This document shows, in pieces, positions 9,509 to 62,134 of a DNA stretch of 64,000 nucleotides; position 1 is the stretch's first letter; every line of letters starts with the position of its first letter. The stretch lies in contig CAYPKD010000004.1 in assembly GCA_964411255.1 (NCBI GenBank), positions 13,093 through 77,092 on the forward strand, read 5' to 3'. The notes beneath the pieces were generated by a model, which saw nothing but the letters and a program-made list of their open reading frames with translations, made no database searches and was not told the DNA's origin. The DNA comes from an uncultured Gammaproteobacteria bacterium (lineage in GTDB: Bacteria; Patescibacteriota; Patescibacteriia; UBA11705; DATKZF01). Position numbers and translations under genes: made by a program.

Positions 9509-9516
9509 TATCAAGT

Positions 9517-23712: not shown

Positions 23713-23732
23713 TCCACACAGCTAACCTCAAT

Positions 23733-28602: not shown

Positions 28603-29064
28603 TTATGATGCAATCATCATAACATCACCACGAATTTTATTTTCATCCATTAATCGTTCCATATCGTCAATTAATGAATCAGGAGCTCCGCTATCTATAG
28701 TTATATCGCCGCCGACATAAATATCATTTGGCATATGTTTTATTGACGTGTATTTCATTTCTATATCCCTTTCAACATGCAGGCCTGCTGGTAACCTTTT
28801 TAAATCTTCAGCATAGCTAATAATTAAATCTCTGCGGATATGTAAATTTGGCGGCAGCATTTGTATTTCGGGATTTAATTCCAGGTCGCCATTTACTATA
28901 ATTTTTCCTTCCTGTAAAGTTACTTTATCTAGAAATTTATTAATATCTTTTTCATCAAAAAAACCGTTTGATTCTTGAGCCCATTTTTTTAAGGACTTCA
29001 TATCAGGAATTTTCTTGGGTTCAGCTGATTCGATTTTTCCTGGTTCTTTTTCCATATTATTCAT
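28603..29064 (-). CDS. stand-alone homolog of the paralog family C-terminal repeat domain (lacks the conserved N-terminal module)
   Basis: ..LPPNLHIRRDLIISYAEDLKRLPAGLHVERDIEMKYTSIKHMPNDIYVGGDITI.. and tail ..ENKIRGDVMMIAS, matching the family LP repeats and GKIKGDV cap. Confidence 0.6.
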   Translation of the reverse strand: MNNMEKEPGKIESAEPKKIPDMKSLKKWAQESNGFFDEKDINKFLDKVTLQEGKIIVNGDLELNPEIQMLPPNLHIRRDLIISYAEDLKRLPAGLHVERDIEMKYTSIKHMPNDIYVGGDITIDSGAPDSLIDDMERLMDENKIRGDVMMIAS

Positions 29065-41803: not shown

Positions 41804-41868
41804 GCTGCTGCCTGAACTGTCATTCCTGCGTAGGCAGGAATCCAAGTTTAAAAGTGCAGCAGTATTTT
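41804..41868 (+). repeat. GC-rich hairpin repeat element, copy 2 (GCTGCTGCCTGAACTGTCATTCC-TGCGTAGGCA-GGAAT..GCAGCAGT)
   Basis: Shares CTGAAC(T)GTCATTCC plus palindromic GC hairpin architecture with copy 1. Outer arms GCTGCTGC / GCAGCAG are complementary. Confidence 0.5.
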
Positions 41869-46920: not shown

Positions 46921-48138
46921 TTATTTATTAATTATTTTTAGCATTTTGTTTGTTTTATTTATCCAATCATGTTTTTTGGCTGCTTCTTGTCTTTTGAGTT
47001 TTAGGTTTTTATCAGTTTCATTGATTGCATGGTTTATAAAACTATTAAACTCTTGTTTGTCTTTTGCAATATATAATAATTCTTTAAAATTATTCACCCC
47101 AGCACCCTCAGTTGTCACTACTGGCTTACCCAATGCTAAATATTCATACATTTTCATTGGATTCATGGACTGGACAAATTTGGTTAATTTATGTGGAATT
47201 ATGCAAACATCAAATTTGTTAATATATGAAGGCGCATATTCAAATTTAATTCTGCCTAAAAATTTTACATTCTCAAGCAGTTCCAGCTTATTTTTTATTT
47301 CTTTTTTTACATTTTTCCAGATTGGACCTGCCAATACAATCAATTTATCTTCATTTTTTTGAGCAATGAATTTTATCAAGTCAAAATCAATTCTATCCTG
47401 AATTGTTCCAATATAGCCAATGATTTTTCTTTTTTCATCGTCTATTACTGTTTGTTTTTGCAAATTTTCATCATTTGTGTAGTGATGATAATCAACACCA
47501 TTTGGAATCCAGTGCACATTGTCTTCTCTACCGAATTGTTTGTAAAATTCAGTTAATTCATCAGAAACTGTAAATATATAGTCTGCCTTAGCAGCAATTT
47601 TTTTATAATTGTTCATTAGCTTTTTCTTTTTTATTAATTTTAGATACGCTTTATGTTCCGTCCAGTTATCTACTGTATCAAATACAAATTGTTCATAATT
47701 AAGTTTGTTTAAAAAGTCTAAAAACATGGGATTATACGACCAAACGATTAAATTATCAAGATTTAATTTTTTTATTATTTTATTCAGTTCTTTGCTAATA
47801 GTTTTTGGAGACCAGACTGAGTCAACACTTGAATAAACATAAATTTTATCAGTCGCTTTATAGCAGGCGCTGGTCATGTCGCCATAAATGATTTGCTTAT
47901 TTTTTGAATTAAACAATAAATTATGATAATAATATTTTAGTCCGGGTTTCAGACTTATAGGCAAAAAGTCAACTGAAATAATTTTATTAATTGAATCATC
48001 TTTTTCCAAATTTTCTAAAATAAAATAATTGCGATTTACAATCCCGTTTTGCCAATCAGAATTGGCTGACATATTAAATATTAAAATATTACTCTTTTTT
48101 TTGATCATAATCTGATTTTTTTTGAACAGATTGCTCAA
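46921..48138 (-). CDS. family 1 (GT4-like) glycosyltransferase
   Basis: C-terminal ..EYLALGKPVVTTEGAGVNNF.. typical of GT-B group 1 transferases. Confidence 0.7.
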   Translation of the reverse strand: MSNLFKKNQIMIKKKSNILIFNMSANSDWQNGIVNRNYFILENLEKDDSINKIISVDFLPISLKPGLKYYYHNLLFNSKNKQIIYGDMTSACYKATDKIYVYSSVDSVWSPKTISKELNKIIKKLNLDNLIVWSYNPMFLDFLNKLNYEQFVFDTVDNWTEHKAYLKLIKKKKLMNNYKKIAAKADYIFTVSDELTEFYKQFGREDNVHWIPNGVDYHHYTNDENLQKQTVIDDEKRKIIGYIGTIQDRIDFDLIKFIAQKNEDKLIVLAGPIWKNVKKEIKNKLELLENVKFLGRIKFEYAPSYINKFDVCIIPHKLTKFVQSMNPMKMYEYLALGKPVVTTEGAGVNNFKELLYIAKDKQEFNSFINHAINETDKNLKLKRQEAAKKHDWINKTNKMLKIINK

Positions 48139-48577
48139 TTTTATTTTGAAGATCCTTTGTTTTTGATATTACATGAATTAGCTGCCTTTCCTCCTCCTCA
48201 TCCATTTGATTAAATTTTTTTTCATAAACTGTATTTAAGGCATTTAATGTGGTTTGCATTTTTTCCTGCAGGATTTTAAGCATTTCTTCCTTTGAAGGAA
48301 CTTTTTCTTTTAGAATTACCCGAGGACCAGAATGAAATCCCTGCTCATGCATTTGGCTTTCCTCATCTTCTGACCATGGTTCCTGAGTGCTTTCGCTTTC
48401 GATTACTAAAAACTTATCATCTTCCTTAAGCCATGTTATAAGCTGATCAATTTCGCAAATATCATTTTTTTCCTGCATTATCAAATCAAAAAGCTTATTA
48501 ATCGGGATTAAAACTTCCTCTTCTTCCTTTAATAATGTTTCAGCTAAATCTAAGATTTCTTTTTTTTGATCTGTCAT
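48089..48577 (-). CDS. hypothetical acidic protein
   Basis: ORF track. Overlaps neighbours by a few nt (operonic). Confidence 0.35.
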   Translation of the reverse strand: MTDQKKEILDLAETLLKEEEEVLIPINKLFDLIMQEKNDICEIDQLITWLKEDDKFLVIESESTQEPWSEDEESQMHEQGFHSGPRVILKEKVPSKEEMLKILQEKMQTTLNALNTVYEKKFNQMDEEEERQLIHVISKTKDLQNKIEQSVQKKSDYDQKKE

Positions 48578-49560
48578 ATTAATTGAGCTTGGTTATTTTC
48601 ATCATTGTCTTCATGCTTGCCTAAATAAATTTGTGTACCTTCAAGGCCAAACTGCTTGTCTGAAAATTGTTCTGGCGTATTAACGCCTAATTCATAGGCT
48701 TTAGCCGCAATGTTTGTTTTTGATGAAAGTTCATCTAAATAATTTAAAACTACTGCTTCTAAAAGCTGGGGTTTTACTGGACTTCCAAATTCCAGTTTGC
48801 CATGATGGCTTAAAATTAAGTGTAAAACCTTATCTTTTAATTCTTCTGGAAAATCTTTAATTTTATCCATTTCTTTTGCCACCTTGATAGTGCCAATTGG
48901 AATATGACCGACAAATTTGCCTTTTAAGGTCTGGAAAATCCTGGAATTGGTCTCCAGCTCATCAATTTTTCCAATATCATGAAGCAAAATTCCGGTAATC
49001 AGCAAATCTTTATTTATATTTGGATAATCCTTTAGCACAGGCTCAGCATAACCAAGCATTTCACTCACATGCTCCAGCAATCCGCCAACATATGCATGAT
49101 GAATCACTTTTGCGCCTGGAGCCTGCTTGAATTTTTCAGAAAATTCTTCATCTTTATAAAATTGATTAAGCAATGATTTTAAATGTTTATTTTGCATGCC
49201 TGATATATTTTTCTCAATAATTTTAAACATTTTATCAATGTCTTTTGATGTTTGTTGTAAAAAGTCACTGATTTCATAATCCTCAGTGATTTGCATGGAT
49301 TCAATGATTAGCTGTTTTTTGCCTTTATACTCATTAACTGCTCCGGAAATTAAAACAGCATCACCTTCTTTAGCGCTTTCACAGGTGTCCAGCTTATCTT
49401 CCCAGACCTTTGCATCAATTTCACCAGTCTTATCACCCAAGGTCAAACTCCAATATTCCTTATTTGAAGAAGTCTTTAATTTTTTTTGGCTTTTCACTAA
49501 AAATGTTTGGTCAATCAGGTCCTGGCCTGTTTTCAATTCATTTACAAATATTTTTTTCAT
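48574..49560 (-). CDS. YhaM-like OB-fold plus HD-domain 3'-5' exoribonuclease / phosphohydrolase
   Basis: N-terminal OB fold (..VKSQKKLKTSSNKEYWSLTLGDKTGEIDAKVWE..). HD motifs (..HHAYVGGLLEHV.., ..ILLHDIGK..). Confidence 0.75.
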   Translation of the reverse strand: MKKIFVNELKTGQDLIDQTFLVKSQKKLKTSSNKEYWSLTLGDKTGEIDAKVWEDKLDTCESAKEGDAVLISGAVNEYKGKKQLIIESMQITEDYEISDFLQQTSKDIDKMFKIIEKNISGMQNKHLKSLLNQFYKDEEFSEKFKQAPGAKVIHHAYVGGLLEHVSEMLGYAEPVLKDYPNINKDLLITGILLHDIGKIDELETNSRIFQTLKGKFVGHIPIGTIKVAKEMDKIKDFPEELKDKVLHLILSHHGKLEFGSPVKPQLLEAVVLNYLDELSSKTNIAAKAYELGVNTPEQFSDKQFGLEGTQIYLGKHEDNDENNQAQLI

Positions 49561-49563
49561 ATT

Positions 49564-50271
49564 TTATTTTAGATCAATTTCTCCTTTAATTTTACCTTCT
49601 TTTTTACGTTTTACCAGCTCCTTTATCATTTCTGTTTCATGCTCTTTTATATATACTCTTCCCCCAACATATATATCATCTGGTATTTTTTTATTTTTTA
49701 TTGAAGTTCCGGATAAACTTAGAGATCCTTCAACTCTAAGGCTATTGGGTAAACAATCTATATTTGCGTTCACAAAAGTACAAGTTTGTGTAACATGCAA
49801 ATTAGCTGGCATCTTTTCAACAGTTGAATTTACTAATGATAAATTGCCATTAATGCGTAAATTGTTTGGTAAAAACGATAACTTCATACTTCGTAAGTTT
49901 AGATCTGATTTTGTTTTTATTACTGGTAATTCATCTAATATAAAAGCTGCATCAACATAATTTGCCGCATTTTCCTCCCAGGAATAAATCTGAATTGCCC
50001 AGCTAATTAAATGAGCTCTGGCAACTTTAACGTCTTTAATCTCCTTTTCAACTTTTTTTTCTTTTATTTTAAGCAACTCATTTTTATAATCAGTATAAAA
50101 ATTTAATGCTTCCTGCAATTCTCCAGCTTTTTCCGCAGCTACTGCTTTATCCATAATCTCACCCAGAAAGTCCTTTTCTTCTGGAGTTAAAGGTACACGC
50201 TTAACCTCAGCCCGCCGCGGGCGGACCATTTTTAATTGACTTTCTAATGATTGAGGTTCTTCTGTTTTCAT
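49564..50271 (-). CDS. paralog family member C1
   Basis: N-terminal module MKTEEPQSLESQLKMVRPRRAEVKRVPLTPEEKDFLGEIMDKAVAAEKAGELQEALNFYTDYKNELLKIKE. C-terminal LPNNLRINGNLSL / LPNSLRVEGSLSL repeats. Tail ..KKEGKIKGEIDLK. Confidence 0.8.
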   Translation of the reverse strand: MKTEEPQSLESQLKMVRPRRAEVKRVPLTPEEKDFLGEIMDKAVAAEKAGELQEALNFYTDYKNELLKIKEKKVEKEIKDVKVARAHLISWAIQIYSWEENAANYVDAAFILDELPVIKTKSDLNLRSMKLSFLPNNLRINGNLSLVNSTVEKMPANLHVTQTCTFVNANIDCLPNSLRVEGSLSLSGTSIKNKKIPDDIYVGGRVYIKEHETEMIKELVKRKKEGKIKGEIDLK

Positions 50272-50274
50272 ATT

Positions 50275-50988
50275 TTACATTTCAGTTATTACTCTACCTC
50301 TGATATTACCTTCTGATTTTAATTGGTGGGCTTTGTTAATCACTTTTTTATTGCAATTTACAAGAAAAATATCTGCTCCAACATATAATTCATCTGGCAA
50401 ATCCTGAATTGTTGAATTATTCATATCTAGATTTCCATCAACATGCATATTTTCTGGTAAAGATTCAATTTGGGCGTGATCCATAAGAACGTCTCCATTC
50501 ACATCTAAATTTGTGCCAATCCATTCTTTTACTACAGCTCTATCCAGATCCAAACGTCCATAAATTGTTATATTTGCAGGAAATTCATCGATTACCTTAG
50601 CAGCCAATTCTAAATCTCCCACAGTCTCCAGTTTAGGGAGTTTTGGTATATCAAAAATTTTGTGAGCCTTTTCCTCAAAAGTCATTTCTTCTGGTGGTGT
50701 TTTAAAGACATTTTCAACCCACTTTACCAATTTTTCTTTTGTCCAGCCTGTTTCTTCTTTTTTTTCTTTTTCCCTTGTTTCTTTAATCCTTAACAATTCA
50801 TTCTTATAATCCGTGTAAAAATTTAAGGCCGCTTGCAATTCTCCTGCCTTTTCCGCAGCCACAGCCTTATCCATAATCTCACCTAGAAAAGCCTTTTCTT
50901 CTGGAGTTAAAGGTACACGTTTAACCTCATGGCGCCGCGGGCGAGCCATTTTGAGTTGGGATTCGAGTGATTGGGCTTTTTCCTTCAT
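50275..50988 (-). CDS. paralog family member C2
   Basis: Same N-terminal module. C-terminal repeats. Tail ..KSEGNIRGRVITEM. Confidence 0.8.
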   Translation of the reverse strand: MKEKAQSLESQLKMARPRRHEVKRVPLTPEEKAFLGEIMDKAVAAEKAGELQAALNFYTDYKNELLRIKETREKEKKEETGWTKEKLVKWVENVFKTPPEEMTFEEKAHKIFDIPKLPKLETVGDLELAAKVIDEFPANITIYGRLDLDRAVVKEWIGTNLDVNGDVLMDHAQIESLPENMHVDGNLDMNNSTIQDLPDELYVGADIFLVNCNKKVINKAHQLKSEGNIRGRVITEM

Positions 50989-50991
50989 ATT

Positions 50992-51645
50992 TTATAAAAA
51001 TTTTATTTCACCTTTGATCAGACCTTTTTCCTTTAATTTATTAAATTTATCCTTCAACTCATTAAGAGTTTTAATAGTTAATCCTATATCTTCTACATAT
51101 AAATTCCCACCAATAAATATTGAATCAGGGATATGCATATTTTCAATATCATAACCTGGTATTAATAAATTTGCGCCAACATGAAAGTTTTCAGGTAAAC
51201 TTTTTATTCTTGTATTTCTCAGCGTACAGCTACCTGCAACTTTAAAATTATTCGGTAATTCTGTGGCATTTGAATCTTCTAATTTAAAATTATCTTTAGT
51301 CCTAATTTCATTAGAGTCATCATCCATACAGGTAGGATCAAGCCATTGAAATATCCATTCCATTGGATTTCCTTCAATGAATTCATCAGCCCAAGCTTCT
51401 AGATCTGCATAACCCCAGGTTTGCTCTACTTTTTCCTTTATTTTCAACAATTCATCTTTATATTCTTGATAATATTCAATTGCCTTTGCTAATTCTCCAG
51501 CCTTTTCCGCAGCCACAGCCTTATCCATTATCTCACCTAGAAAAGCCTTTTCTTCCGGAGTAAGCGGTACACGTTTAATCTCAGCGCGTTTTGGGCGGGC
51601 CATTTGGAGTTGGGATTCGAGTGATTGTTCTGGAGTATTTTGCAT
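50992..51645 (-). CDS. paralog family member C3
   Basis: Same N-terminal module. Distinct Trp-rich middle (TWGYADLEAWADEFIEGNPMEWIFQWLDP). LPNNFKVAGSCTL / LPENFHVGANLLI repeats. Tail ..KEKGLIKGEIKFL. Confidence 0.8.
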   Translation of the reverse strand: MQNTPEQSLESQLQMARPKRAEIKRVPLTPEEKAFLGEIMDKAVAAEKAGELAKAIEYYQEYKDELLKIKEKVEQTWGYADLEAWADEFIEGNPMEWIFQWLDPTCMDDDSNEIRTKDNFKLEDSNATELPNNFKVAGSCTLRNTRIKSLPENFHVGANLLIPGYDIENMHIPDSIFIGGNLYVEDIGLTIKTLNELKDKFNKLKEKGLIKGEIKFL

Positions 51646-51650
51646 AGTTC

Positions 51651-52352
51651 TTATGTTATTTTAATATCACCCTTGATATCGCCCTGCTTTTTAAATTTCT
51701 CTATTTCTTTTACCATATCTGGGTCTGATTCACTTACATATACTTCTTCTTCAACATGTAAAGATTCAGGTTCTTTTTTATTATTTATTTCAGCTTTTGT
51801 CATATCTAAAAGACCTCCAATAATCATGGTTTTTGGTAATTGATTAATTTTTACAAATCTTAAAATACAATTTTCATTCGTATATAAAGCATTTGGCATT
51901 TTCTTAATAGTACAGTTGGTTGAAACAAAGCTCCCATTAACATGTAAAACGTTTGGCAAATCCTCAAGTATCATATTATTAAAGGTCATATTTCCTTTTG
52001 TTTGAATTATAGGTAATTCATCTAATACAAAATTTGCCTCTACATATCTCTCAGCTCTTTGTGTTGATAATCCTAGATTTCTTATAGCCCAATGAATTAA
52101 ATCTTGCTCAGTCCATTCCTTTTCTTCCTCTTCTTTTCTTTCTTTTATTTTTAGCAATTCATTCTTATAATCAGTATATAAATCCAAAGCTTCCTGCAAT
52201 TCCCCAGCCTTTTCCGCAGCCACAGCCTTATCCATAATTTTTCCTAAAAATTCCTTCTCTTCTGGTGTTAAAGGAACACGCTTAACCTCAGCACGCTTTG
52301 GCCGGGCCATTTTGAGTTGGGATTCTAAGGATTGTGGTTGTTCTTTTGGCAT
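51651..52352 (-). CDS. paralog family member C4
   Basis: Same N-terminal module. Tail ..KKQGDIKGDIKIT. Confidence 0.8.
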   Translation of the reverse strand: MPKEQPQSLESQLKMARPKRAEVKRVPLTPEEKEFLGKIMDKAVAAEKAGELQEALDLYTDYKNELLKIKERKEEEEKEWTEQDLIHWAIRNLGLSTQRAERYVEANFVLDELPIIQTKGNMTFNNMILEDLPNVLHVNGSFVSTNCTIKKMPNALYTNENCILRFVKINQLPKTMIIGGLLDMTKAEINNKKEPESLHVEEEVYVSESDPDMVKEIEKFKKQGDIKGDIKIT

Positions 52353-52380
52353 AAAGTCATTAGATATTTATCATTGTTCA

Positions 52381-52542
52381 TTAGGGTTTAAAATAGGGCC
52401 GCTGCTTTGGATTACGCAAAACTAACAGAAAGATTTCTCCATTCCGTCCGCCCTTGGCGGACTTCAGTCGAAATGACAAGCGAGGGCAGCGAGCCATTTG
52501 GAGTTGGGATTTGGGTAATTGTGGCTTTTCTTTTATGTTCAT
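52381..52542 (-). pseudogene. truncated paralog remnant: first 18 codons of a family gene (MNIKEKPQLPKSQLQMAR) fused to a copy of the hairpin repeat element
   Basis: Reverse-strand translation matches the family N-terminus up to QMAR and then reads into the repeat element (52385-52500, reverse orientation; about 85% identity to copy 1). Confidence 0.6.
52385..52500 (-). repeat. GC-rich hairpin repeat element, copy 3 (inside the truncated paralog)
   Basis: Reverse complement reads CGCTGCCCTCGCTTGTCATTTCGACTGAAGTCCGCCAAGGGCGGACGGAATGGAGAAATCTTTCTGTTAGTTTTGCGTAATCCAAAGCAGCGG. Collinear with copy 1, including the palindromic hairpin and the TAGTTTTG..CCAAAGC(A/T)GCGG tail. Confidence 0.55.
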
Positions 52543-52548
52543 ACGAAT

Positions 52549-53256
52549 TTAATTCTTCCAAATAATTTCTCCAATGATTTTCCCTTCACCTTTTAATTTA
52601 TTTAATAGGTCCATAACATTTCCATGAATTGGTTTATTCAAATACACATTGCCTCCAATGAAAATTGTATCTGATATTTTATTATCAATAAAAACTATGT
52701 CATCTAATATTAAATCTCCACTAATATTTAATAGGGCTGGTATTGTATCAATATTGGCTTTTTGTATTAATAAATTCTTATCAACAGTTAATGTCTGAGG
52801 CATTTTTTTAATGATACCTTGTATGGTCATAGATCCTTTTACATGAATATTTTCAGGTATCGTTTCTATATTGACATGTGAAGATAAATCTAAGTCTTTC
52901 TTGGCAATTATTTTGGGATATTCTTCAAAATCAAAATGCTCATCTACCCAGCTTTCACAATCTCTGGCAATTTCATGTTGTTTTGCCCATTCTATAAGAT
53001 CATTTCTTTGCTGCAGTCGTAAAGATTGCTCTTTTTCTAATCGTTCTTTAATCTTCAATAATTCATTCTTATATTCTGTATACAAATCCAAAGATTTTTG
53101 CAATTCCCCGGCCTTTTCCGCAGCCACAGCCTTATCCATAATGTCGCCTAAAAATTCTTTTTCCTCAGGTGTCAATGGTACACGCTTAACCTCAGCACGC
53201 TTTGGCCGGGCCATTTTAAGTTGATTTTCTAATGATTGCGGCTGTTCTTTCTTCAT
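52549..53256 (-). CDS. paralog family member C5 (track ORF extends to 53319; family-consistent start MKKEQPQSLENQLKMARP at 53256)
   Basis: Same N-terminal module. Start lies 1 nt after the AMMECR1 stop. Tail ..KGEGKIIGEIIWKN. Confidence 0.75.
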   Translation of the reverse strand: MKKEQPQSLENQLKMARPKRAEVKRVPLTPEEKEFLGDIMDKAVAAEKAGELQKSLDLYTEYKNELLKIKERLEKEQSLRLQQRNDLIEWAKQHEIARDCESWVDEHFDFEEYPKIIAKKDLDLSSHVNIETIPENIHVKGSMTIQGIIKKMPQTLTVDKNLLIQKANIDTIPALLNISGDLILDDIVFIDNKISDTIFIGGNVYLNKPIHGNVMDLLNKLKGEGKIIGEIIWKN

Positions 53257-53257
53257 A

Positions 53258-53791
53258 TTATTCTGAAAAAATTTCGGACTGATAAGAATAAATCTCGACT
53301 TTAGGATCTTTCCAAGCATCTTCTGGTAAGCCTGCCTTTAAGCATAAATTACTTAAAAAGTCTTCTTTTGTTTTAAAATGTTTCCAAACTTGAGGCAGGT
53401 ATGTGGCTTTTTCTGCACCATATTTTAATACAATGCCATCAATGCCGATTTTAATATGATCCAGCTTTACTTTTTCCGGAACGGTCAAAACTGATATTTC
53501 AATTTTAATATCTTTTAATTCATCGTTTTGCAAAGGTAAAAACCGAGGATCATCAAAAGCTGCAGCTAATGCATTTTGTTTTACTGCTTCCCAAAGTGAT
53601 GTAATTGCCTCAATATAACCAATACAGCCGCGCAATTCTTCATTCTTATGTAAAGTAACAAACACACCTCTGTGCTCCAGAAACTTTTTATTATCAGTTT
53701 GAGGATTAAAATCAGTACCCTCAAGCTTTGCTTCAATGCTTTTCCTTGCTAATTGCAATAATTCGATTTTTTCATAATCAAAAAAAGGCAT
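53258..53791 (-). CDS. AMMECR1-domain protein (AmmeMemoRadiSam system protein A family)
   Basis: ..GVFVTLHKNEELRGCIGYIEA.. The LRGCIG motif is diagnostic of AMMECR1. Confidence 0.85.
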   Translation of the reverse strand: MPFFDYEKIELLQLARKSIEAKLEGTDFNPQTDNKKFLEHRGVFVTLHKNEELRGCIGYIEAITSLWEAVKQNALAAAFDDPRFLPLQNDELKDIKIEISVLTVPEKVKLDHIKIGIDGIVLKYGAEKATYLPQVWKHFKTKEDFLSNLCLKAGLPEDAWKDPKVEIYSYQSEIFSE

Positions 53792-53846
53792 ATATTTTTC
53801 GCAAATATATATTGATATTATATAAAATATTGCAAAATTTAGCCAA

Positions 53847-54314
53847 TTAACTGTGGAACTTTAAATAGTATGCAAAAACACCCCAGGCAACTGCTACATT
53901 TAATGATTCTTTAATACCTTTCATTGGTAAATGAACTGTTTTATCTACTTTTAATAATAAACTCTTTGATATGCCCTCAACCTCATGTCCAAGAACAACT
54001 GCAATAGGAAATTGCGGCTTGAATTTGCGATAATCAATGCTGCTCTTTGTTTTTTCTAAAGCAATTATCTGATAGCCCTGCTTTTTCAAATCATCGATTA
54101 ATTTCCCTGGCTGTTTATAATATTCCCAGTCAACAGACTTTTCAGCATCAAGAGCTGTTTTTGTAATTTTCTTTTCATCTTTATCTGGTCTTGGCGTATA
54201 ACCAGTAATATATATTTTTTCAATATTGCATGCATCGCTTGTTCGAAAAATAGAACCTACATTATATGCGCTTCTAATATTTGGTAGTATAAGAATTATG
54301 TTTTTCTGTCTCAT
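53847..54314 (-). CDS. SpoU-family RNA 2'-O-methyltransferase, TrmL-like (about 155 aa)
   Basis: ..NVGSIFRTSDA.. SAM-binding knot motifs. Size matches TrmL/YibK. Adjacent to queA. Confidence 0.75.
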   Translation of the reverse strand: MRQKNIILILPNIRSAYNVGSIFRTSDACNIEKIYITGYTPRPDKDEKKITKTALDAEKSVDWEYYKQPGKLIDDLKKQGYQIIALEKTKSSIDYRKFKPQFPIAVVLGHEVEGISKSLLLKVDKTVHLPMKGIKESLNVAVAWGVFAYYLKFHS

Positions 54315-55336
54315 AAAATCAACATAGAATCTCCAAAACTATAAAATCTATACCCTTTCTGAATTGCCTTATTATAAATGCTCAATATTTTTGCTCGGCC
54401 TGTTAATGCGGCGATTAGCATAATTAATGAACTCTTTGGTAAATGAAAATTTGTGATAATTCCGTCAATAGTTTTGAATTTATATGATGGATAAATGAAG
54501 ATATCTACTTTGCCTTTCCATGCCTTTTTTATTTGCTTTTGGCCAATAGCTCCTTCCAAAACTCTGGCTGAGGTTGTGCCCACAGCAATAATTCGTCTGC
54601 CTTGTTTTTTTGCTTTTAATAATTTTTCTAAATTTGTTTTATTAATTTCAATACTTTCAGAATGAAGTTTATGTTTTTCTATATCTTCAGATCGTACAGG
54701 TGCAAAGGTTCCCAATCCTACATGTAAAGTTACAAAAGCAGTTTCAATGCCTTTTTTGTTTAATTTATTTAACACTTTTTTTGTAAAATGAAGACCAGCG
54801 GTAGGGGCGGCTGATGAACCAAATTGTTTCGCATATATTGTTTGATATTGTTTTTTAAGTTTTGCCTGCTTTTCATTTGATTTTATATAAGGCGGAAGCG
54901 GTACTAAACCTATTTTTTCGATAATTTTATAAAAATCTCCTGAATATTTGAACTTAACCTGCCATTCCATATCACTTATTCTATTTACTAACTCTGCCTC
55001 AAGTTTATCAGAAAATATTACTTTCATTCCTTTTTTCTTATTTTTTACTCCAACCAAAGCCTTCCAAGTCTTGTTTTCAATCTGTTCAAGCAGCAGAACC
55101 TCTACTTTGCCCCCTGTGAGCTTTTTACCAATCAATCTGGCTGGATATACTTTTGAATCATTAAAAACCAGCAGATCCCCTTTCTGTAAATATTTATCAA
55201 TATTAAAAAATTTATCATGAATAATCTTGTCTCTTTGTCTATTATAAACAAGCAGCCTCGATTTATCTCGAGGATGCAATGGTTTTTGAGCAATTAGCTC
55301 TTTTGGTAAATTATAATCAAAGTCTGATAGTTTCAT
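54311..55336 (-). CDS. queA: S-adenosylmethionine:tRNA ribosyltransferase-isomerase
   Basis: N-terminus MKLSDFDYNLPKELIAQKPLHPRDKSRLLV is a near-canonical QueA start. 341 aa. Confidence 0.9.
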   Translation of the reverse strand: MKLSDFDYNLPKELIAQKPLHPRDKSRLLVYNRQRDKIIHDKFFNIDKYLQKGDLLVFNDSKVYPARLIGKKLTGGKVEVLLLEQIENKTWKALVGVKNKKKGMKVIFSDKLEAELVNRISDMEWQVKFKYSGDFYKIIEKIGLVPLPPYIKSNEKQAKLKKQYQTIYAKQFGSSAAPTAGLHFTKKVLNKLNKKGIETAFVTLHVGLGTFAPVRSEDIEKHKLHSESIEINKTNLEKLLKAKKQGRRIIAVGTTSARVLEGAIGQKQIKKAWKGKVDIFIYPSYKFKTIDGIITNFHLPKSSLIMLIAALTGRAKILSIYNKAIQKGYRFYSFGDSMLIL

Positions 55337-55337
55337 A

Positions 55338-55997
55338 TTAAAAACGTTCTTTTATACCTAAAACTCGTCCTGCTCTTAAAGCCTCTAGAGCTGATTTGAT
55401 TAAAGCTTTATTATCTGGGCTTACATAAACTTTACCGTTTACAGTATTGAATTGAGGTAATGATTTTATGTTTAAGCCCCGCAAATCTAGATCACCATTC
55501 ACCTCTAAATGTTCAGGTAATTCTATTATGTTTTTAGAATCTTTTAATGAAAGATCTCCAATAATGTATAAATTCTCAGGTAAATATTCCAAATTATCTT
55601 CATTTTCAATGCTCAATGAGCTATTAATAATAATTTTTCCTGGAAAATCCTCATCAAATTCTACTGCTGAATTCACCCAAAATTTTGCAAATGAAATGTT
55701 TGTCAAATTCGTTTTAACCCAGTCAATAAGCCCTTTCCTGGCTTTTTCAATAATTTCTTGTTTTGACATTGTTTGGCTTTCCTTTCTTTCTTTTATTTTC
55801 AGCAATTCATTCTTGTAATCAGTATAAAATCCCAAGGCCTTTTCTAATTCTCCAGCCTTTTCAGCAGCCACTGCCTTATCCATAATCTCGCCCAGAAACT
55901 TCTTTTCTTCTGGAGTCAATGGCACGCGCTTAACCTCAGCGCGCTTTGGACGGGCCATTTTGAGTTGGGATTCTAAAGATTGGGATTTTTCCGGCAT
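55338..55997 (-). CDS. paralog family member D1
   Basis: N-terminal module MPEKSQSLESQLKMARPKRAEVKRVPLTPEEKKFLGEIMDKAVAAEKAGELEKALGFYTDYKNELLKIKE. LPENLYIIGDLSL / LPEHLEVNGDLDL / LPQFNTVNGKVYV repeats. Confidence 0.8.
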   Translation of the reverse strand: MPEKSQSLESQLKMARPKRAEVKRVPLTPEEKKFLGEIMDKAVAAEKAGELEKALGFYTDYKNELLKIKERKESQTMSKQEIIEKARKGLIDWVKTNLTNISFAKFWVNSAVEFDEDFPGKIIINSSLSIENEDNLEYLPENLYIIGDLSLKDSKNIIELPEHLEVNGDLDLRGLNIKSLPQFNTVNGKVYVSPDNKALIKSALEALRAGRVLGIKERF

Positions 55998-55998
55998 A

Positions 55999-56667
55999 TT
56001 ATTTTACTTGAGTAACTTTACCTATTTGTCCTTTTTTTTCCAATTTTTTAGCTTGATCTAGCAGATCTGTATCAGTTTTTTTAATAAATATATTCATTGC
56101 TACTTTTAGATCATCTGGTAACTCTTTGATATTCGCATTTACAAGATGAAGATCTTTATTAACTACTAGGTTTCTAGGCAAATACTTAAAATCATTCCGT
56201 TCAATAATTAAAGTCCCATCAACAATTAAATGATTTGGTAATCTTTTAATATCATAAACAGCAGGATTGATTCGAAGATCACCTTTTATTTTAAGATGTG
56301 GAAGAGGGGCTGATCTGTCAAACTTCTTCTCTATCCAATTTACAGCAGCTTGTCCTGAAAATCCGACTTCATTATGTACCCAGTCTAATACCTCTTCAGG
56401 AAGATTTAAATCAAAACCCTCATCTGACTTTTTTTTCTTTTCTTGTTCTTTTTTATCTTTTATCCTTAATAATTCATTTTTATAATCAGTATACAAATTC
56501 AAAGCTTCTTGCAATTTCCCAGTTTTTTCCGCAGCTACAGCTTGATCCATTATCTTTCCGAGAAAATCCTTTTCTTCAGGAGTTAAAGGCACACGCTTAA
56601 CTTCAGCGCGCTTTGGGCGGGCCATTTTGAGTTGATTTTCTAATGATTGGGGTTGTTCTTTTGGCAT
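55999..56667 (-). CDS. paralog family member D2
   Basis: Same N-terminal module. LPNHLIVDGTLII / LPRNLVVNKDLHL / LPDDLKVAMNIFI repeats. Confidence 0.8.
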   Translation of the reverse strand: MPKEQPQSLENQLKMARPKRAEVKRVPLTPEEKDFLGKIMDQAVAAEKTGKLQEALNLYTDYKNELLRIKDKKEQEKKKKSDEGFDLNLPEEVLDWVHNEVGFSGQAAVNWIEKKFDRSAPLPHLKIKGDLRINPAVYDIKRLPNHLIVDGTLIIERNDFKYLPRNLVVNKDLHLVNANIKELPDDLKVAMNIFIKKTDTDLLDQAKKLEKKGQIGKVTQVK

Positions 56668-56675
56668 AATTAGAG

Positions 56676-58157
56676 CTAAATTTCTATTACTCTTTTTACA
56701 TATGTATTTTCATCTTTAGCAATGATATACGCCTTATTATCATTAATTGGTACAACATGGTAAATTTTATCATAATCCTCACTAACTTTTTCTCTTTTTT
56801 CATTTACCATAAACCATTTATCACCTTTTTTTGCTTTAAAAACTAGCGTTCCTTCAATATCCTCAACAGAACTAATTTTATCATATTCATCACTAATTTT
56901 TTCACCTTTTTCATTAATTAAAAATTGTTTTCCATCGTTTTCTGCATAAAAAATGATCCTACCTCCAATATCTAATGGATGCCTGACAAAATCATAGTCT
57001 TTTCCAATAATTTCACCCTTTTCATTTACAATGTATTTTTTTTTCTTGATTTTAACTTGATAAAACATAATTCCTGCAACATTGAAAATGAACTCGATTC
57101 CATCATAATCTTCACTAAGTTTTTTGCCTTTTTCATCCACGATAAACCATTTATCATCTTTTTTTGCTCCAAACACAAGTTTGCCCCCGATGTTTTTTGG
57201 AGTACCAATTTCCTCATAATCTTGTTCAAGTTCTTCCCCTTTTTCATTGACGATAAACCATTTATTATCTCTGGTTGCCGAGAAAACAATATTCCCCCCA
57301 ATATTATCCAGATATGAAATCCATTCATATCCTTTACTGATTTTTTCTCCTTTTTCATTAAATACAAACCATTCGCTACCCTGTCTGGCATGGAAAAACA
57401 TTTTATCTTCAAAAAATTGAGGAGGATCAATAGCATTATATTCTTGCCCATATTTACCTTCTTTTTCATTCACCAGAAACCATTTACTACTATTTTTTTT
57501 TGTTTCACAGGCATGAAATACACATTCTCCTTTTACATTCATTAGATTTGAAACAGATGAATAATTGCTGCCAATCTTTTCTCCTTTCTCATTTACTACA
57601 AAGTATTCATCGTTTTTCATTCCACTAATAAATAACTGCCCGGCTATATCAGTAATATGATGTATTTCATCAAACGCTGCTCCTATTCTTTCTCCCTGTT
57701 CATTAACTACAAAACTCTTCTTATCCTGTTCAACAGGAAAAAATAACCTGCCTAGGCTATGCATAGGATTATGAGCAAAGTCATAGCCTTTTCCGATCTT
57801 TCTGTCTTGCCCATAAATAACATAAAATTTGCCATCTTTTTTTGCACTAAAAGCAATTTTACCTTCTATATCTGAAGGCTCATAATATTCTTCGTACTCA
57901 TCTAAATTTATTGTATATTCCTGTTCCTTTTCTGAAATAGATTCCTTTATCTTTAACAATTCATTCTTATAGTCTGTATAAAATCCCAAAGCCTTTTCTA
58001 ATTCTCCAGCCTTTTCCGCAACTACAGCTTTTTCCATAATCTCACCTAAGAATTCTTTTTCCTCAGGTGTCAACGGTACACGTTTAACCTCAGCGCGCTT
58101 TGGACGTGCCATCTTCAATTGACTTTCAAGTGATTGTTCAGTTTGTTCTGCTTTCAT
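56676..58157 (-). CDS. paralog family member D3: N-terminal module fused to about ten WG-like (KWF-variant) beta repeats
   Basis: N-terminal module, then about 38-aa repeats DKWFIVNEKGEKISxDYDxI....IGGxLVFxAKKD. 493 aa. Confidence 0.8.
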   Translation of the reverse strand: MKAEQTEQSLESQLKMARPKRAEVKRVPLTPEEKEFLGEIMEKAVVAEKAGELEKALGFYTDYKNELLKIKESISEKEQEYTINLDEYEEYYEPSDIEGKIAFSAKKDGKFYVIYGQDRKIGKGYDFAHNPMHSLGRLFFPVEQDKKSFVVNEQGERIGAAFDEIHHITDIAGQLFISGMKNDEYFVVNEKGEKIGSNYSSVSNLMNVKGECVFHACETKKNSSKWFLVNEKEGKYGQEYNAIDPPQFFEDKMFFHARQGSEWFVFNEKGEKISKGYEWISYLDNIGGNIVFSATRDNKWFIVNEKGEELEQDYEEIGTPKNIGGKLVFGAKKDDKWFIVDEKGKKLSEDYDGIEFIFNVAGIMFYQVKIKKKKYIVNEKGEIIGKDYDFVRHPLDIGGRIIFYAENDGKQFLINEKGEKISDEYDKISSVEDIEGTLVFKAKKGDKWFMVNEKREKVSEDYDKIYHVVPINDNKAYIIAKDENTYVKRVIEI

Positions 58158-58183
58158 ATTGTTATATGATATATGTTACATGA

Positions 58184-58906
58184 TTAAAGTTTTTCAGGCA
58201 TAAATGATGCCTTTTCCGTTTTCATTAATTCTTTAATATACTTTTGTGCTTTTTTATCTTTTTTTATTGACTCTTCAAGATCCTTTTCAATCTCTGGCTT
58301 AATGTCCATCTCAAATCGTTCAAATGATTTTTCTGATAAATTTTCATCATTTAAAATTTCAATAATTTTCAAACTCTCTTCAGGTAAATTAAAAAAATCA
58401 AGCGAATTATCCTTTTCAACATTATATTTGTCAATCAATATTCTTCTAAATTTTCTCAGACCACCTATTTCAGCCATTGAATCTAAAACGAGCTCTTTTT
58501 GATTAACTACAAAATTTATTTCTTCCTGCCAATGCTGCGGGTCATCAGCCTTAGCCTTAGCCTTTGCCATTGTATATCTGCGAATTAAATAATCTAAAAT
58601 CATTTCTCTTTTATATAATGTTTTAATATTATCAATTATCTCTTCATGTTTTTTCTCCTTTATACGATTTATTTCTTTTTTCCTCTCTTCCTGCAATTTA
58701 TCGTTTATTTTCATTAATTCGTTTTTATAATCAGTATACAAATCTAGGGCTTCTTTTAGTTTCCCCGCTTTCTCTGCCGCCACTGCCTTATCCATTATCT
58801 TTCCGATAAATTCCTTTTCTTCTGGCGTTAAGGGCACACGCTTAACCTCACTCCGCCGCGAGCGGGCCATCTTCAATTGACTTTCAAGTGATTGTTCTGC
58901 TTTCAT
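58184..58906 (-). CDS. paralog family member D4: N-terminal module fused to an unrelated charged helical C-terminal region
   Basis: N-terminal module (MKAEQSLESQLKMARSRRSEVKRVPLTPEEKEFIGKIMDKAVAAEKAGKLKEALDLYTDYKNELMKI). C-terminal part lacks LP repeats. Confidence 0.75.
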   Translation of the reverse strand: MKAEQSLESQLKMARSRRSEVKRVPLTPEEKEFIGKIMDKAVAAEKAGKLKEALDLYTDYKNELMKINDKLQEERKKEINRIKEKKHEEIIDNIKTLYKREMILDYLIRRYTMAKAKAKADDPQHWQEEINFVVNQKELVLDSMAEIGGLRKFRRILIDKYNVEKDNSLDFFNLPEESLKIIEILNDENLSEKSFERFEMDIKPEIEKDLEESIKKDKKAQKYIKELMKTEKASFMPEKL

Positions 58907-58921
58907 ATTGGTTTGAGCAAG

Positions 58922-59557
58922 TTACTGTTCTTCCAATCCCTTTACTCTCCCTTCGTTTATGGCTTTTAGTACAGATTCTCTTAATTTAGTTTTTGATGCA
59001 TTACTAATAACTTTGCAATCAACTCTAATATCATCAGGCAATACTACAATATCAGTATCCAACAAATTTAAATTTCCTCTAACATGTAAATTATTGGGTA
59101 AATCGCCTAATGATGTGCCTTTTAATGAGAATTCTCCATCAATCTCTAAATTTTCAGGCATTTCAGTACAATTTTTTTTATGTTCAATTTTAATAGGACT
59201 ATCAACTATAATTTTTGGATATTTACTAAAATCAACATTAGCATCTGTCCATGATTCAATATTTGTATCTTCTATAAAAATTGATGAAAGCCATTCAATA
59301 AATTTTTGCCTGGTATTTTTTATTTTTTCAATTTGTTCCTTTTCTTCCTTTATTTTATTTAATTCATTTTTATAATCTGTATAATACCCCAAAGCCTCAG
59401 CCAATTTTCCTGCCTTTTCCGCAGCTACAGCTTTATCCATAATCTCACCTAAAAAAGCCTTTTCTTCTGGAGTTAATGGCACACGCTTAACCTCACTCCG
59501 CCGCGGGCGGGCCATTTGGAGTTGATTTTCTAATGATTGTTTTGGCTTTTCTTTCAT
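58922..59557 (-). CDS. paralog family member D5 (track ORF extends to 59596; family-consistent start MKEKPKQSLENQLQMARP at 59557)
   Basis: Same N-terminal module. LPNNLHVRGNLNL / LPDDIRVDCKVIS repeats. Confidence 0.75.
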   Translation of the reverse strand: MKEKPKQSLENQLQMARPRRSEVKRVPLTPEEKAFLGEIMDKAVAAEKAGKLAEALGYYTDYKNELNKIKEEKEQIEKIKNTRQKFIEWLSSIFIEDTNIESWTDANVDFSKYPKIIVDSPIKIEHKKNCTEMPENLEIDGEFSLKGTSLGDLPNNLHVRGNLNLLDTDIVVLPDDIRVDCKVISNASKTKLRESVLKAINEGRVKGLEEQ

Positions 59558-59599
59558 AATAAAGGTAATATATTTCCGCTGATTTGGGATATTCAATTC

Positions 59600-59672
59600 T
59601 GTTAAATAGATCTCTCGACTGCGCCCTTCACAAGCTCAGGGCTTCGCTAGAGATGACAGCTGGACAGCGGTA
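59600..59672 (-). repeat. GC-rich hairpin repeat element, degenerate copy 4 (immediately upstream of array D)
   Basis: Reverse complement CCGCTGTCCAGCTGTCATCTC-TAGCGAAGCCCTGAGCTTGTGAAGGGCGCAGTCGAGAGA. Shares the GCTG(T)CC..GTCAT head and a GC hairpin. Shares 10-11-mers with 27538-27560 and 44770-44782. Confidence 0.4.
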
Positions 59673-59678
59673 TTAAAC

Positions 59679-60158
59679 CTACTTGAGTTTATTAACCTGC
59701 TTTACAATTTCATTAATATCTAAATAATCCTCAAAGTTCTTTCCCTTATATGCCCAGACGATTTCATGATCTGGGTTTATTAAAAATAAAGCTGGTAGGC
59801 TCATTTTTTTATTATTTTTTATCTCAGTTTTCACACCAAGCAGCTCTGTTATATTAAATTCTGGATCAGGCAAAATTGGAAATTTTAATAATAAAAATGA
59901 TTTTAGCACAGCAGTGCCCATTTTATTATCATTTGAAATTGCCAAAGGCTTGGCTTTTAATTTATCTAAATTTTCGTTAAGTTTCATTAAATGTTTTCTG
60001 CACAGACCGCACCATTTGCCTCTGATAAAGGTAATCAAAACCCAGTCATCTTTTTGCCAATTATAAAAATTAAAGATACCCCCTTTAGTATCTTCAAGTT
60101 GCCAATTATTAATTTGTATATTCATATACGATTTATTCGTAACTTTAACAACAATCAT
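59679..60158 (-). CDS. thioredoxin-fold redoxin (AhpC/TSA-like; single CxxC)
   Basis: ..WVLITFIRGKWCGLCRKHL.. CxxC in thioredoxin-fold context. Confidence 0.65.
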   Translation of the reverse strand: MIVVKVTNKSYMNIQINNWQLEDTKGGIFNFYNWQKDDWVLITFIRGKWCGLCRKHLMKLNENLDKLKAKPLAISNDNKMGTAVLKSFLLLKFPILPDPEFNITELLGVKTEIKNNKKMSLPALFLINPDHEIVWAYKGKNFEDYLDINEIVKQVNKLK

Positions 60159-60303
60159 CTAAGCTTAATTCATCCAGCTCTTTCATTTGCTTTTCGAACT
60201 TTTGCAAACATTCTTCACTACAAAAATTTTGGTCATGTTTTTCAATGCAATCTTTTTCAATCTTTTTTTCACAAACAATACATTTTTTTTTGAATATTCC
60301 CAT
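60145..60303 (-). CDS. possible small zinc-ribbon protein (52 aa; MGIFKKKCIVCEKKIEKDCIEKHDQNFCSEECLQKF..)
   Basis: Manual translation. CxxC..C..CxxxC pattern. Below the track cutoff. No clear RBS. Confidence 0.25.
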   Translation of the reverse strand: MGIFKKKCIVCEKKIEKDCIEKHDQNFCSEECLQKFEKQMKELDELSLDDCC

Positions 60304-60304
60304 A

Positions 60305-61000
60305 TTAAAAGTGACCGTTTTTATGGTTTTTTTCTATTTCAACTTCTTCTTCAATCTTTTTCTCTGCCACTTTTTTTACTTTATAAAAACCAAGCAAAGA
60401 AAACACCAATACAGCTGACACAATAATTCCAATCAAATTTGCTACAGCTGATTGAAGGGCACCAATTATAATTGCCGGATTTAGCATGCCAATACCAATT
60501 GAAATAGTGGCAAACGGCGGCAACAAAGTGACGGCAATGGCTATTCCAGGCAAAATTACAGATAATTCCTTTCTGGCCCAGGCAAAAGCAGCAGCCACGC
60601 CTGATGCAATAGCAACATAAAAAAATGTTAAATTTACAAAGCTTTTTGAACTAATCTCTTCTGTAATAACTTTTTCCGGAGCAATAATGGTCATTATCAA
60701 AGATACTATTAAAATTATGCCAATTGACTTCACAATAATTTTAATTGACCACCACATTACTTTTTTATCAACTACCACAACACCCAGAGCTAATGTTAAT
60801 AATGGCGATAAAAGCGGTGCAATCAGCATTCCACCTATTATAACCGGAACATTGTCTAAAAGCAGTCCTAAAGATACAATAACAGATGATAAAATTAACA
60901 TCAAATAAAAAGAATAAGTCAATTTACTTGATTCTATAAGTTCAGTTGCACGCTTTTTTTTCTCACGTGTTTTTGGTATTAATGTATCGTTTTTAGTCAT
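60305..61000 (-). CDS. DUF389-like integral membrane protein
   Basis: ..VIIGGMLIAPLLSPLLTLALGVVV.. Hydrophobic repeats resemble DUF389. Confidence 0.5.
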   Translation of the reverse strand: MTKNDTLIPKTREKKKRATELIESSKLTYSFYLMLILSSVIVSLGLLLDNVPVIIGGMLIAPLLSPLLTLALGVVVVDKKVMWWSIKIIVKSIGIILIVSLIMTIIAPEKVITEEISSKSFVNLTFFYVAIASGVAAAFAWARKELSVILPGIAIAVTLLPPFATISIGIGMLNPAIIIGALQSAVANLIGIIVSAVLVFSLLGFYKVKKVAEKKIEEEVEIEKNHKNGHF

Positions 61001-61020: not shown

Positions 61021-61092
61021 ATAATTACTGCGTTAGGTAATACAAAACTATTAGCAAATTCCCACCTTTGCGGGAATGACGGACAGGACAGC
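61021..61092 (-). repeat. GC-rich hairpin repeat element, copy 5
   Basis: Reverse complement GCTGTCCTGTCCGTCATTCCCGCAAAGGTGGGAATTTGCTAATAGTTTTGTATTACCTAACGCAGTAAT. Collinear with copy 1 over about 70 nt. Confidence 0.55.
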
Positions 61093-61093
61093 T

Positions 61094-62134
61094 TTATTTA
61101 TTAATAAATTCTTTTGCTAAATCAATATAATCAGAATATCCATGCTTTTTCATATAATACCACCATTCTACTCCCCAAATATAATATTTTTCAAAACCAG
61201 CTTCTTTTGCATATTCAGTATTTTCTATAAATAATTCCGGACTGAATTTTTCATATTGCTCGATTATTGGCACACTGGTAAATGGTACATTAAACCATGG
61301 TTCCATTTGAAATTCAGCAACTATTACTTTATCTACCCTTTTTTCTGCCAAATAAGCTCTTTTTGAATACCAGGCTGGGGGGCTGGCCCAGTGAAAGTCT
61401 CCAAGTAAAGGATTAGAAACATCGCGATACATTGTAATACCTAAAATATCAGCATATTTTGTAACATTCAGCCAGGTGCTTAATTCTCCAGAATCAGTAA
61501 GCATTATTTGTCTATCTGGATCAAGAGAATGAACCAAATCAATTTCATTTACAAAAATTTCTTTGTTTGGCTTTGGACATCTGCCAAATGGAAATAGCGC
61601 CTCATTTTCAACCTGCCACATATTAATAACCTTTTTATCTTTATATCTATTTACAACTGTCTCAATCATTTCTAAAAGCTCTTTTTCCTTTGTGTCATAC
61701 ATTAAATCCTGCACCCAGTCTGGTTCATAGCATTCTGGCCAGCGAAGCAATTTTCTGCCAACAGCTAATACAACCTTGCCATCTCTTTTTTCTACTTCAT
61801 TGATCATCCAATCTAATTGTTCAAAATTATATTGATTATTTTCAGGCTCAATTTCATCCCAATAAGCGGAAATCCTGACATCTGTTAATTTCAGTTCATC
61901 AAGCATGTTTATAAAAGTATTTTGCCAGTCTAAATGCAATTCCTGGGCAAATCGTGGGCTAAAAGTAACGCCCCACTCTGGATTATTATTTCTCGGCTTT
62001 TCTGGTAGTAATGAATATAAAAAAAAGAAAATTGCCAAAGCAAGTAATATGATCATTACTATTATAAATACTATAAATCTAATTTTAATTTTTTGTGGTT
62101 TTGGTTTTCTTTTTAGTTTTTTCTTTTTCACCAT
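61094..62134 (-). CDS. membrane-anchored hypothetical protein, possible glycoside-hydrolase-like TIM-barrel domain
   Basis: N-terminal basic segment plus TM. Trp-rich ectodomain (..WGVTFSP.., ..YWDEIEPENNQYNF..). Assignment weak. Confidence 0.35.
   Translation of the reverse strand: MVKKKKLKRKPKPQKIKIRFIVFIIVMIILLALAIFFFLYSLLPEKPRNNNPEWGVTFSPRFAQELHLDWQNTFINMLDELKLTDVRISAYWDEIEPENNQYNFEQLDWMINEVEKRDGKVVLAVGRKLLRWPECYEPDWVQDLMYDTKEKELLEMIETVVNRYKDKKVINMWQVENEALFPFGRCPKPNKEIFVNEIDLVHSLDPDRQIMLTDSGELSTWLNVTKYADILGITMYRDVSNPLLGDFHWASPPAWYSKRAYLAEKRVDKVIVAEFQMEPWFNVPFTSVPIIEQYEKFSPELFIENTEYAKEAGFEKYYIWGVEWWYYMKKHGYSDYIDLAKEFINK

Follow-up and report, generated by a model that had tools for sequence, protein, structure and literature searches.

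Bacteria of the Candidate Phyla Radiation (CPR), or Patescibacteria, possess very small genomes and are believed to live on other cells; to our knowledge, the proteins that mediate this way of life are almost entirely uncharacterized. Leucine-rich repeat (LRR) proteins built of short units have been described in other bacteria (IpaH/SspH/YopM-type proteins, Leptospira LRR proteins, PDB 8z5u), and the VirB2 pilins of Patescibacteria are encoded in tandem arrays of 2-11 divergent paralogs that are thought to serve host interaction (PMC12102498). The window analyzed in this work, a stretch of 64,000 nucleotides from contig CAYPKD010000004.1, contains at positions 49564-53256 a tandem gene array (array C) whose products belong to a new lineage-restricted protein family with a previously undescribed N-terminal head domain. 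The family varies two known themes: the expansion of LRR proteins among host-dependent microbes and the tandem arrangement of divergent paralogs in Patescibacteria. The source organism was placed in Patescibacteria solely through the named homologues of the AMMECR1 gene that flanks array C, the best of which are labeled 'Patescibacteria group bacterium' and 'Candidatus Parcubacteria bacterium'.

The proteins of the window differ from the short-unit LRR proteins of other bacteria in that they give no Pfam LRR match, contain just four to five units, and carry the novel N-terminal head and a conserved C-terminal tail; a NEL or other effector domain and a type III secretion context are likewise absent. 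Homology was found to signal-peptide LRR proteins of Salinivibrio and Photobacterium, in which both the LRR unit and the terminal repeat (LPDDIYVGGNVYI) are related to those of the family, with tblastn identities of 38-42% over about 75-85 aa in four Salinivibrio records and of 33-39% over 87-93 aa in two Photobacterium records. The only one of these proteins that was translated, a 192-aa hypothetical protein of Salinivibrio proteolyticus (WP_269598796.1, positions 3743-4321 of locus L028, NZ_CP114585.1), matches the C-terminal profile of the family with an E-value of 1e-25 and carries a Sec signal peptide in place of the 72-aa head of the CPR proteins. It is solitary at its locus, the only such locus inspected. 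Like the VirB2 pilins, the family forms tandem arrays of strongly diverged paralogs in small CPR genomes, but it has no signal peptide or hydrophobic segment, adopts another fold, and is not adjoined by type IV secretion genes in the window. The F-box/LRR and F-box/WD40 receptors and the LXG toxins follow a similar design, in which a small conserved helical module at the N-terminus is combined with exchangeable C-terminal modules in a multigene family. The parallel is no more than an analogy: the family matched neither F-box nor LXG proteins in sequence or profile comparisons, and no ubiquitin or type VII secretion context is known for it. The N-conserved/C-variable layout of polymorphic LXG toxins is present, but the C-termini are repeat or binding modules without a toxin family match, and no cognate immunity genes were found, the array genes being 3-5 nt apart with no small open reading frames (ORFs) between them. 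The arrays also differ from integron cassettes, since no integrase is present in the window and the structured repeat described below (R1) is located at array heads, not at every gene boundary.

The shared protein plan comprises a helical head of about 72 aa, a helix rich in E and K, four to five twenty-residue LRR units and the conserved tail; 13 of the 15 members found in the window show the head followed by the E/K-rich helix, a W-x8-W segment, the LRR units and the tail. The head opens with a basic stretch of conserved sequence, (S)LE(S)QL(K/Q)MARP(K/R)RxEVKRVPLTPEEK, and continues as a helical hairpin with the signature KAVAAEKAGxLxxAxxxYxxYKxELLKIKE. It is about 80-90% identical between paralogs, with a mean column entropy of 0.46 bits, versus 2.1-2.3 bits elsewhere in the proteins. 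The 20-residue unit LPxxLxVxGxLxLxxxxIxx occurs in four or five copies per paralog, with its framework positions kept, its x positions variable and Gly where Asn or Cys is usual, and the tail has the consensus KAxxLKxxGxIKGxI. An AlphaFold2 model obtained from a 36-sequence alignment (predicted local distance difference test score of 89.2, predicted template modeling score of 0.71) has helices at residues 9-16, 30-48, 52-96 and 99-109, followed by a solenoid of short strands and a C-terminal helix. Both the 20-residue units with a conserved framework and the curved solenoid with a parallel beta-sheet are features of the LRR superfamily. A role of the tail (G-x-I-K-G-E/D) in encoding the ribosome-binding site for the following gene was considered but discarded, because the AAAGGAGA-like strings, at about 20-25 nt upstream of the start codon, are too distant.

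The only recurrent similarity of the head, which gave its best Pfam and PDB single-domain matches, is to the first two helices of the MIT domain (PF04212), found at the N-termini of Vps4, spastin and katanin; these helices and TPR-like hairpins are resembled by the head signature KAxxAEKAGxLxxAxxLY. Seven of the nine window paralogs tested scored 15.1-18.5 bits with the Pfam MIT model, whose gathering threshold is 30, and C5 and B3 gave no MIT match at E ≤ 1. The best score in the family, 25.9 bits for P0046, is also below this threshold. A profile of 25 diverse heads matched the MIT structures of Vps4/SKD1 with E-values of 0.006-0.016, and designed TPR and PPR repeats also matched this profile through the KAGxLxxAxxLY turn. 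Because the MIT scores are below threshold and TPR and PPR repeats match as well, the domain has been named TPR/MIT-like helical head and not MIT domain. The family has no counterpart in Pfam, no match for it was found in NCBIfam, and PADLOC gave none for any member tested.

A hidden Markov model of the N-terminal domain, searched against the six-frame translation of the window together with a motif scan, has revealed exactly 15 genes, a number far beyond chance because each match has an E-value of about 1e-30 to 1e-34. These genes are distributed in three arrays (A, B and C) of five. Outside the window the family is rare: the LRR-paralog profile retrieved 58 clusters among 5.8 billion, and an exhaustive HMMER search with the head alone retrieved, from 1.84 billion representatives, 53 proteins at E ≤ 1e-3 and 20 at E ≤ 1e-30. 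The close members come from few contigs of one sample series (JGI Ga01804xx/Ga03xxxx, ENA ERZ272567xx). No description of the family was found in the literature, no relative in viral contigs and a phage collection, and no record on look-up of the exact sequences P0037 and P0055. A scan of genome contigs with the family alignment gave no confirmed relative, nor did a QueA-based scan, whose query was reduced to poorly conserved peptide patterns.

The head is also joined to C-termini other than the LRR, including repeats of about 40 residues predicted as beta repeats (B3, P0187, P0191, P0206), all-helical regions (B4, P0046, P0056) and a C-terminal domain of about 290 residues (the P0035-P0058 class and P0210). 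The LRR module occurs without the head in one gene of the window (28603-29064), which is solitary, divergent from clpB and composed of the mid-region, three LRR units and the tail, as well as in Salinivibrio and Photobacterium. Because it joins other C-termini and the LRR module also exists without it, the head constitutes a separable module. The family is truly modular, as seen in B3, B4, the class with the 290-residue domain and the LRR-only gene. No curated family matched the C-termini of B3 and B4; the B3 repeats probably form a beta-propeller-like module.

A preliminary description of array C had been made from the DNA sequence and its ORFs. The five intact paralogs and the 5' remnant that it placed on the minus strand at 49564-53256 were found there, and the coordinates (Table 1) confirmed the distances of 1 nt from the AMMECR1 stop codon to the C5 ATG and of 3 nt from the C1 stop codon to the ATG of the downstream gene encoding HD and OB-fold domains (HD/OB). 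The start of C5 agrees with the JGI gene call; a longer ORF, extending to 53319, was rejected because it overlaps AMMECR1. The 3-5 nt spacers attributed to the whole array hold for C4/C3, C3/C2 and C2/C1 (5, 3 and 3 nt, respectively), but the gap between C5 and C4 measures 196 nt (52353-52548). A copy of R1 sits between C5 and C4. Array C may therefore consist of two units and not of one sandwiched block, and a more accurate description is C5 followed by a C4-C1 block with a head of its own. The remnant does contain a paralog 5' end, but this amounts to only about 17 codons fused to the R1 element; the remainder of its 53-aa ORF, to position 52381, reads through R1 and is not derived from a paralog. 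Its AAATCCCAACTCCAAATGGCTCGC stretch is almost base-for-base the same as that of A2 and C3. A Trp-rich insert proposed for C3 as a sign of modularity did not withstand alignment. The quoted stretch exists but corresponds to the W-x8-W mid-region of all LRR paralogs, a divergent homologous region that shows no modularity, and C3 is shorter, not longer, being the shortest LRR copy of array C with one unit fewer than the others. The C-terminal half of C2 has its nearest kin in the array A paralogs (41-44% identity), and that of C4 is 73% identical to P0015, its orthologue. Array C is present in three independent metagenome assemblies with 100%, 99.99% and 99.99% identity, which excludes an assembly artefact.

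Table 1. Coordinates of the family genes, R1 elements and flanking genes in the window.
Feature	Position	Strand	Remarks
R1 element, array A head (before A1)	6546-6619	+	96.1 bits
Array A (A1-A5)	6635-10287	+	Five family genes between PBP2 and GreA
LRR-only relative	28603-29064	-	153 aa; C-terminal profile E 3.3e-18
R1 copy outside arrays	41804-41865	+	Truncated, antisense, between VWA-domain gene and ECF sigma factor gene
HD + OB-fold gene (YhaM-like architecture)	48574-49560	-	Downstream flank of array C; Pfam HD 3.7e-14, tRNA_anti-codon OB 3.5e-10
C1	49564-50271	-	235 aa
C1 N-domain	aa 1-72 (nt 50056-50271)	-	
C1 E/K-rich helix and W-x8-W cap	aa 73-115		
C1 LRR	aa 116-210		Four to five 20-aa units
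C1 conserved tail	aa 211-235		
C2	50275-50988	-	237 aa
C3	50992-51645	-	217 aa; divergent Trp-rich mid-region
C4	51651-52352	-	233 aa; heads C4-C1 sub-array
Remnant ORF	52381-52542	-	53 aa
R1 element, C4 head	52396-52493	-	98 nt; covariance model 37.3 bits, E 2e-7
Remnant	52489-52542	-	First ~17 paralog codons (MNIKEKPQLPKSQLQMAR), fused at ATGGCTCGC/TGCCC to R1 5' end
C5	52549-53256	-	235 aa; no R1 element of its own
AMMECR1 (AmmeMemoRadiSam system protein A)	53258-53791	-	Upstream flank of array C; Pfam 1.8e-54
Array B (B1-B5)	55338-59557	-	Five family genes between AhpC and QueA
B3	56676-58157	-	Head and about ten ~40-residue repeats (KWF[IV]VNEKGEKI...)
B4	58184-58906	-	Head and all-helical C-terminus
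R1 element, array B head (before B5)	59573-59671	-	35.3 bits, E 7e-7
R1 copy outside arrays	61022-61095	-	22 nt upstream of DUF389 gene

The location of array C in a housekeeping gene run and not in an obvious island, also proposed in the preliminary description, was upheld, as its flanks AMMECR1 and HD/OB lie within a conserved backbone. Synteny with related genomes was analyzed at two loci (L006, GCA_049319825.1, and L008) with AMMECR1 proteins 62% and 64% identical, respectively. Both loci display the gene order AhpC-QueA-SpoU-AMMECR1-HD/OB-GT1-hyp-GT2-Wzy, with AMMECR1 and HD/OB as direct neighbors separated by 199 nt in L006 and 14 nt in L008, and neither family profile gave a match in them, including the AhpC-QueA junction. 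Since this backbone is free of paralogs, arrays B and C are lineage-specific insertions at two junctions of one gene run. A contig of a sister species (L010) carries a C1 orthologue directly upstream of HD/OB, GT1 and the next genes, and the insertion of C therefore predates the split of the two species. Another genome of the clade contains a four-gene array between CysRS and Dus and single members at other housekeeping junctions. No integrase, transposase, tRNA or phage genes were found in the window. In streamlined genomes, the growth of the family has thus consisted of direct insertion into housekeeping runs, not into islands. A 162-aa acidic ORF that matches no family, located at 48089-48577 (minus strand) between the HD/OB gene and GT1, is absent in L010, L006 and L008 and is thus a second small insertion into the same backbone.

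The age of the copies and the selection acting on them were estimated by codon comparison. In the 64 core codons of the head, the 105 paralog pairs differ on average in 21 codons synonymously and in 10 non-synonymously, with proportions of synonymous (pS) and non-synonymous (pN) differences of 0.62 and 0.10 and a ratio of non-synonymous to synonymous rates (dN/dS) of about 0.08. The high pS and low pN indicate that purifying selection on the protein, and not recent gene conversion, maintains the head. Between C1 and its L010 orthologue, at a dS of about 1, the head gave a dN/dS of 0.09 and the LRR one of 0.26, compared with 0.10, 0.05 and 0.09 for the three genes next to C1; in these codon alignments the LRR has been shown to evolve faster than the head. 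One-to-one orthologues of C1, C2, C4, A3 and B1 are present in a sister species, with 64-76% identity over the C-terminal half, a region in which the paralogs of the window share 25-47% identity, with the exception of A2/A4 (71%). Because orthologues are closer than paralogs, the copies are old and have been retained individually.

The R1 repeat is a candidate new cis-element of the lineage. It is about 75-100 nt long and its end is separated from a start codon by 12-45 nt, a distance that amounts to 43 nt in the copy heading C4. An outer stem (CCGCTGC...GCAGCGG) is followed by the conserved sequence (C/T)GTCAT, by a GC-rich inner hairpin that varies in length and by TTG.ATAAYCCAAAGCAGCGG; in the copy at the C4 head, the outer stem reads CGCTGCC/GCAGCGG, and the inner hairpin has an apical insertion and is followed by TTTTGCGTAATCCAAAGCAGCGG. 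R1 also holds a TATAAT-like box with TG in front. RNAalifold on a MAFFT alignment recovered only the outer stem, the variable hairpins being misaligned, a problem that was solved by a covariance model built from five short copies. This model gave 22 matches at E ≤ 0.01 (24 at E ≤ 1) in 195 kb. In the model-fitted alignment 94.5% of the cells are paired, a count biased by the fit, versus 31-52% with slid structures, a control free of that bias. Compensatory changes, whose count is likewise biased by the fit, were found in 10 of 15 base pairs, with U-G wobbles on the sense strand. No match in the window reached the gathering thresholds of Rfam 15, the best sub-threshold score being that of the A1 copy (24.9 bits vs 66), and hammerhead-like motifs inspected by eye in R1 had no consistent core.

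R1 was found at three of three array heads (P = 0.0025, given five copies among 30 gaps of at least 60 nt), and in two short contigs of sister species (L011 and L015) single family genes have R1 on both sides. Judging from its position and sequence, R1 could act as a terminator/promoter, as an RNA processing site or as the boundary of a mobilized unit; scans for consensus promoters and terminators over 48000-60500 remained at shuffle or background level. In a related genome (L022), a 95-aa GIY-YIG gene (6919-7206) is located between inverted R1 copies at 6852-6914 (plus strand) and 7207-7281 (minus strand), with a further copy at 6772-6846, an arrangement that may hint at how R1 spreads. Some sister-species R1 copies (L011 and L019) are preceded by direct repeats GCGGAC(T/C)G(A/G)CG with a spacing of about 20 nt, which could be regulator binding sites; none were seen upstream of the R1 copies of the window.

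The anatomy of the proteins, the selection on them and the insertion of the arrays are parts of the explanation that we consider near certain. Old duplications gave rise to the arrays, which were inserted into conserved housekeeping gene runs. Through the invariant head, all paralogs would dock to the same partner, for example a machine for export, anchoring or assembly; the E/K-rich helix would space the binding module from the head, and the diversified LRR surfaces would have a different target each, most plausibly located in or on the host cell of this presumably host-dependent organism. As a whole, this model of a docking head with variable binders is proposed tentatively, its chances being slightly below even, and the host-interaction or export reading taken alone is somewhat doubtful. 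Host interaction is favored because CPR bacteria depend on hosts and are known to maintain divergent surface paralogs in arrays, as exemplified by the VirB2 pilins (PMC12102498), and because the homologous LRR module is exported in other bacteria. A wider proposal, which we regard as quite improbable, is that the head would be a targeting module that replaces the Sec signal and loads LRR, beta-repeat and 290-aa modules onto a delivery or display machine aimed at the host, the arrays and R1 forming a cassette-like system that adds modules beside housekeeping operons.

Several observations weigh against the docking model. Export is an assumption, because no signal peptide, no transmembrane segment and, in the window, no secretion genes were found; in every paralog the 19-aa hydropathy peaks at 1.56 or lower and residues 1-35 are hydrophilic. 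The analysis revealed no partner for the head, and at the inspected loci no conserved neighbor gene accompanies the arrays. No Pfam LRR profile was matched at E ≤ 1 among nine paralogs, and the resemblance of the head to MIT is below threshold. The mean dN/dS of the LRR is below 1, a value that does not demonstrate diversifying selection. Finally, the two copies outside the arrays indicate that R1 is a dispersed repeat of the lineage, not exclusive to the family and possibly a general one, and the z-scores of its minimum free energy are modest (-1.0 to -2.3).

Because neither an export signal nor an export machine was found, an intracellular adaptor family has to be considered a serious rival, if an unlikely one. 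The head would recruit a cytoplasmic machine (an AAA+ unfoldase/protease, or an ESCRT-III/PspA-type polymer via the MIT-like hairpin) and the C-termini would select substrates, as in F-box proteins, which are paralleled by the combination of a small N-terminal helical domain with LRR, beta-repeat or other C-termini. The recurrence of MIT as the best Pfam and PDB match is consistent with this role. No ESCRT-III/PspA gene is present in the window. LRRs are also classic recognition modules, and a diversified repertoire of paralogs, some with a possibly enzymatic domain of about 290 aa, might recognize phage or other foreign proteins as NLR/Avs-type sensors do, the head triggering or oligomerizing an effector. 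Such a defence role is very unlikely, since the members tested gave no PADLOC match, no NTPase or effector domain was found, one-to-one orthologues are kept across species with no rapid turnover, and the arrays lie among housekeeping genes, outside defence islands.

The tandem genes, conserved at the 5' end and variable towards the 3' end, could instead be read as a system of antigenic or phase variation, in which the conserved 5' ends would serve as recombination substrates to shuffle C-terminal cassettes and R1 would be the recombination site. The fusion of the remnant to an R1 element, the element-gene-element order in L011 and L015 and an alternative assembly of array A with 111- and 71-nt deletions agree with this idea, which is nevertheless highly improbable: at a pS of 0.62, synonymous sites in the 5' region are almost saturated, which excludes recent homogenization, array C is identical in three assemblies, the orthologues are stable between species, and no recombinase is found nearby. 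That the genes are decaying or selfish duplicates without function, or an artefact of assembly, might be suspected from the presence of one remnant and from the tiny size of the family, limited to few metagenomes. This explanation has been largely refuted by the evidence of selection and assembly, as 15 of 15 copies have intact ORFs, dN/dS is 0.08-0.26, orthologues are kept across a dS of about 1 and independent assemblies are identical. For the model of a docking head with variable binders, the near-invariant head provides an experimental handle, and its partner would reveal the machine common to all members. About 11 kb of the 64-kb window are devoted to this one undescribed family, which suggests something central to the lifestyle of the organism.

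The alternative assembly of array A (L025), which comes from the same genome and is otherwise 100% identical, is devoid of 111 nt in A2 (7836-7946) and of 71 nt in A4 (9335-9405), and these deletions truncate both genes. The 3' ends of A2 and A4 are identical, and so are the regions upstream of A3 and A5; the differences correspond either to population heterogeneity or to assembly collapse in a recent A2-A3/A4-A5 duplication. A GC-rich island at 22000-24000 (44-50% GC versus about 32% elsewhere), which may have been horizontally acquired, holds a 476-codon ORF (22282-23712, plus strand) with a very basic C-terminal tail and without match to any Pfam, NCBIfam, PADLOC or Rfam family. The three components of an AmmeMemoRadiSam system are all found in the window but dispersed and not adjacent, with AMMECR1, a Memo/LigB-like gene and a radical SAM gene at 53258-53791, 33498-34298 and 26512-27519, respectively.

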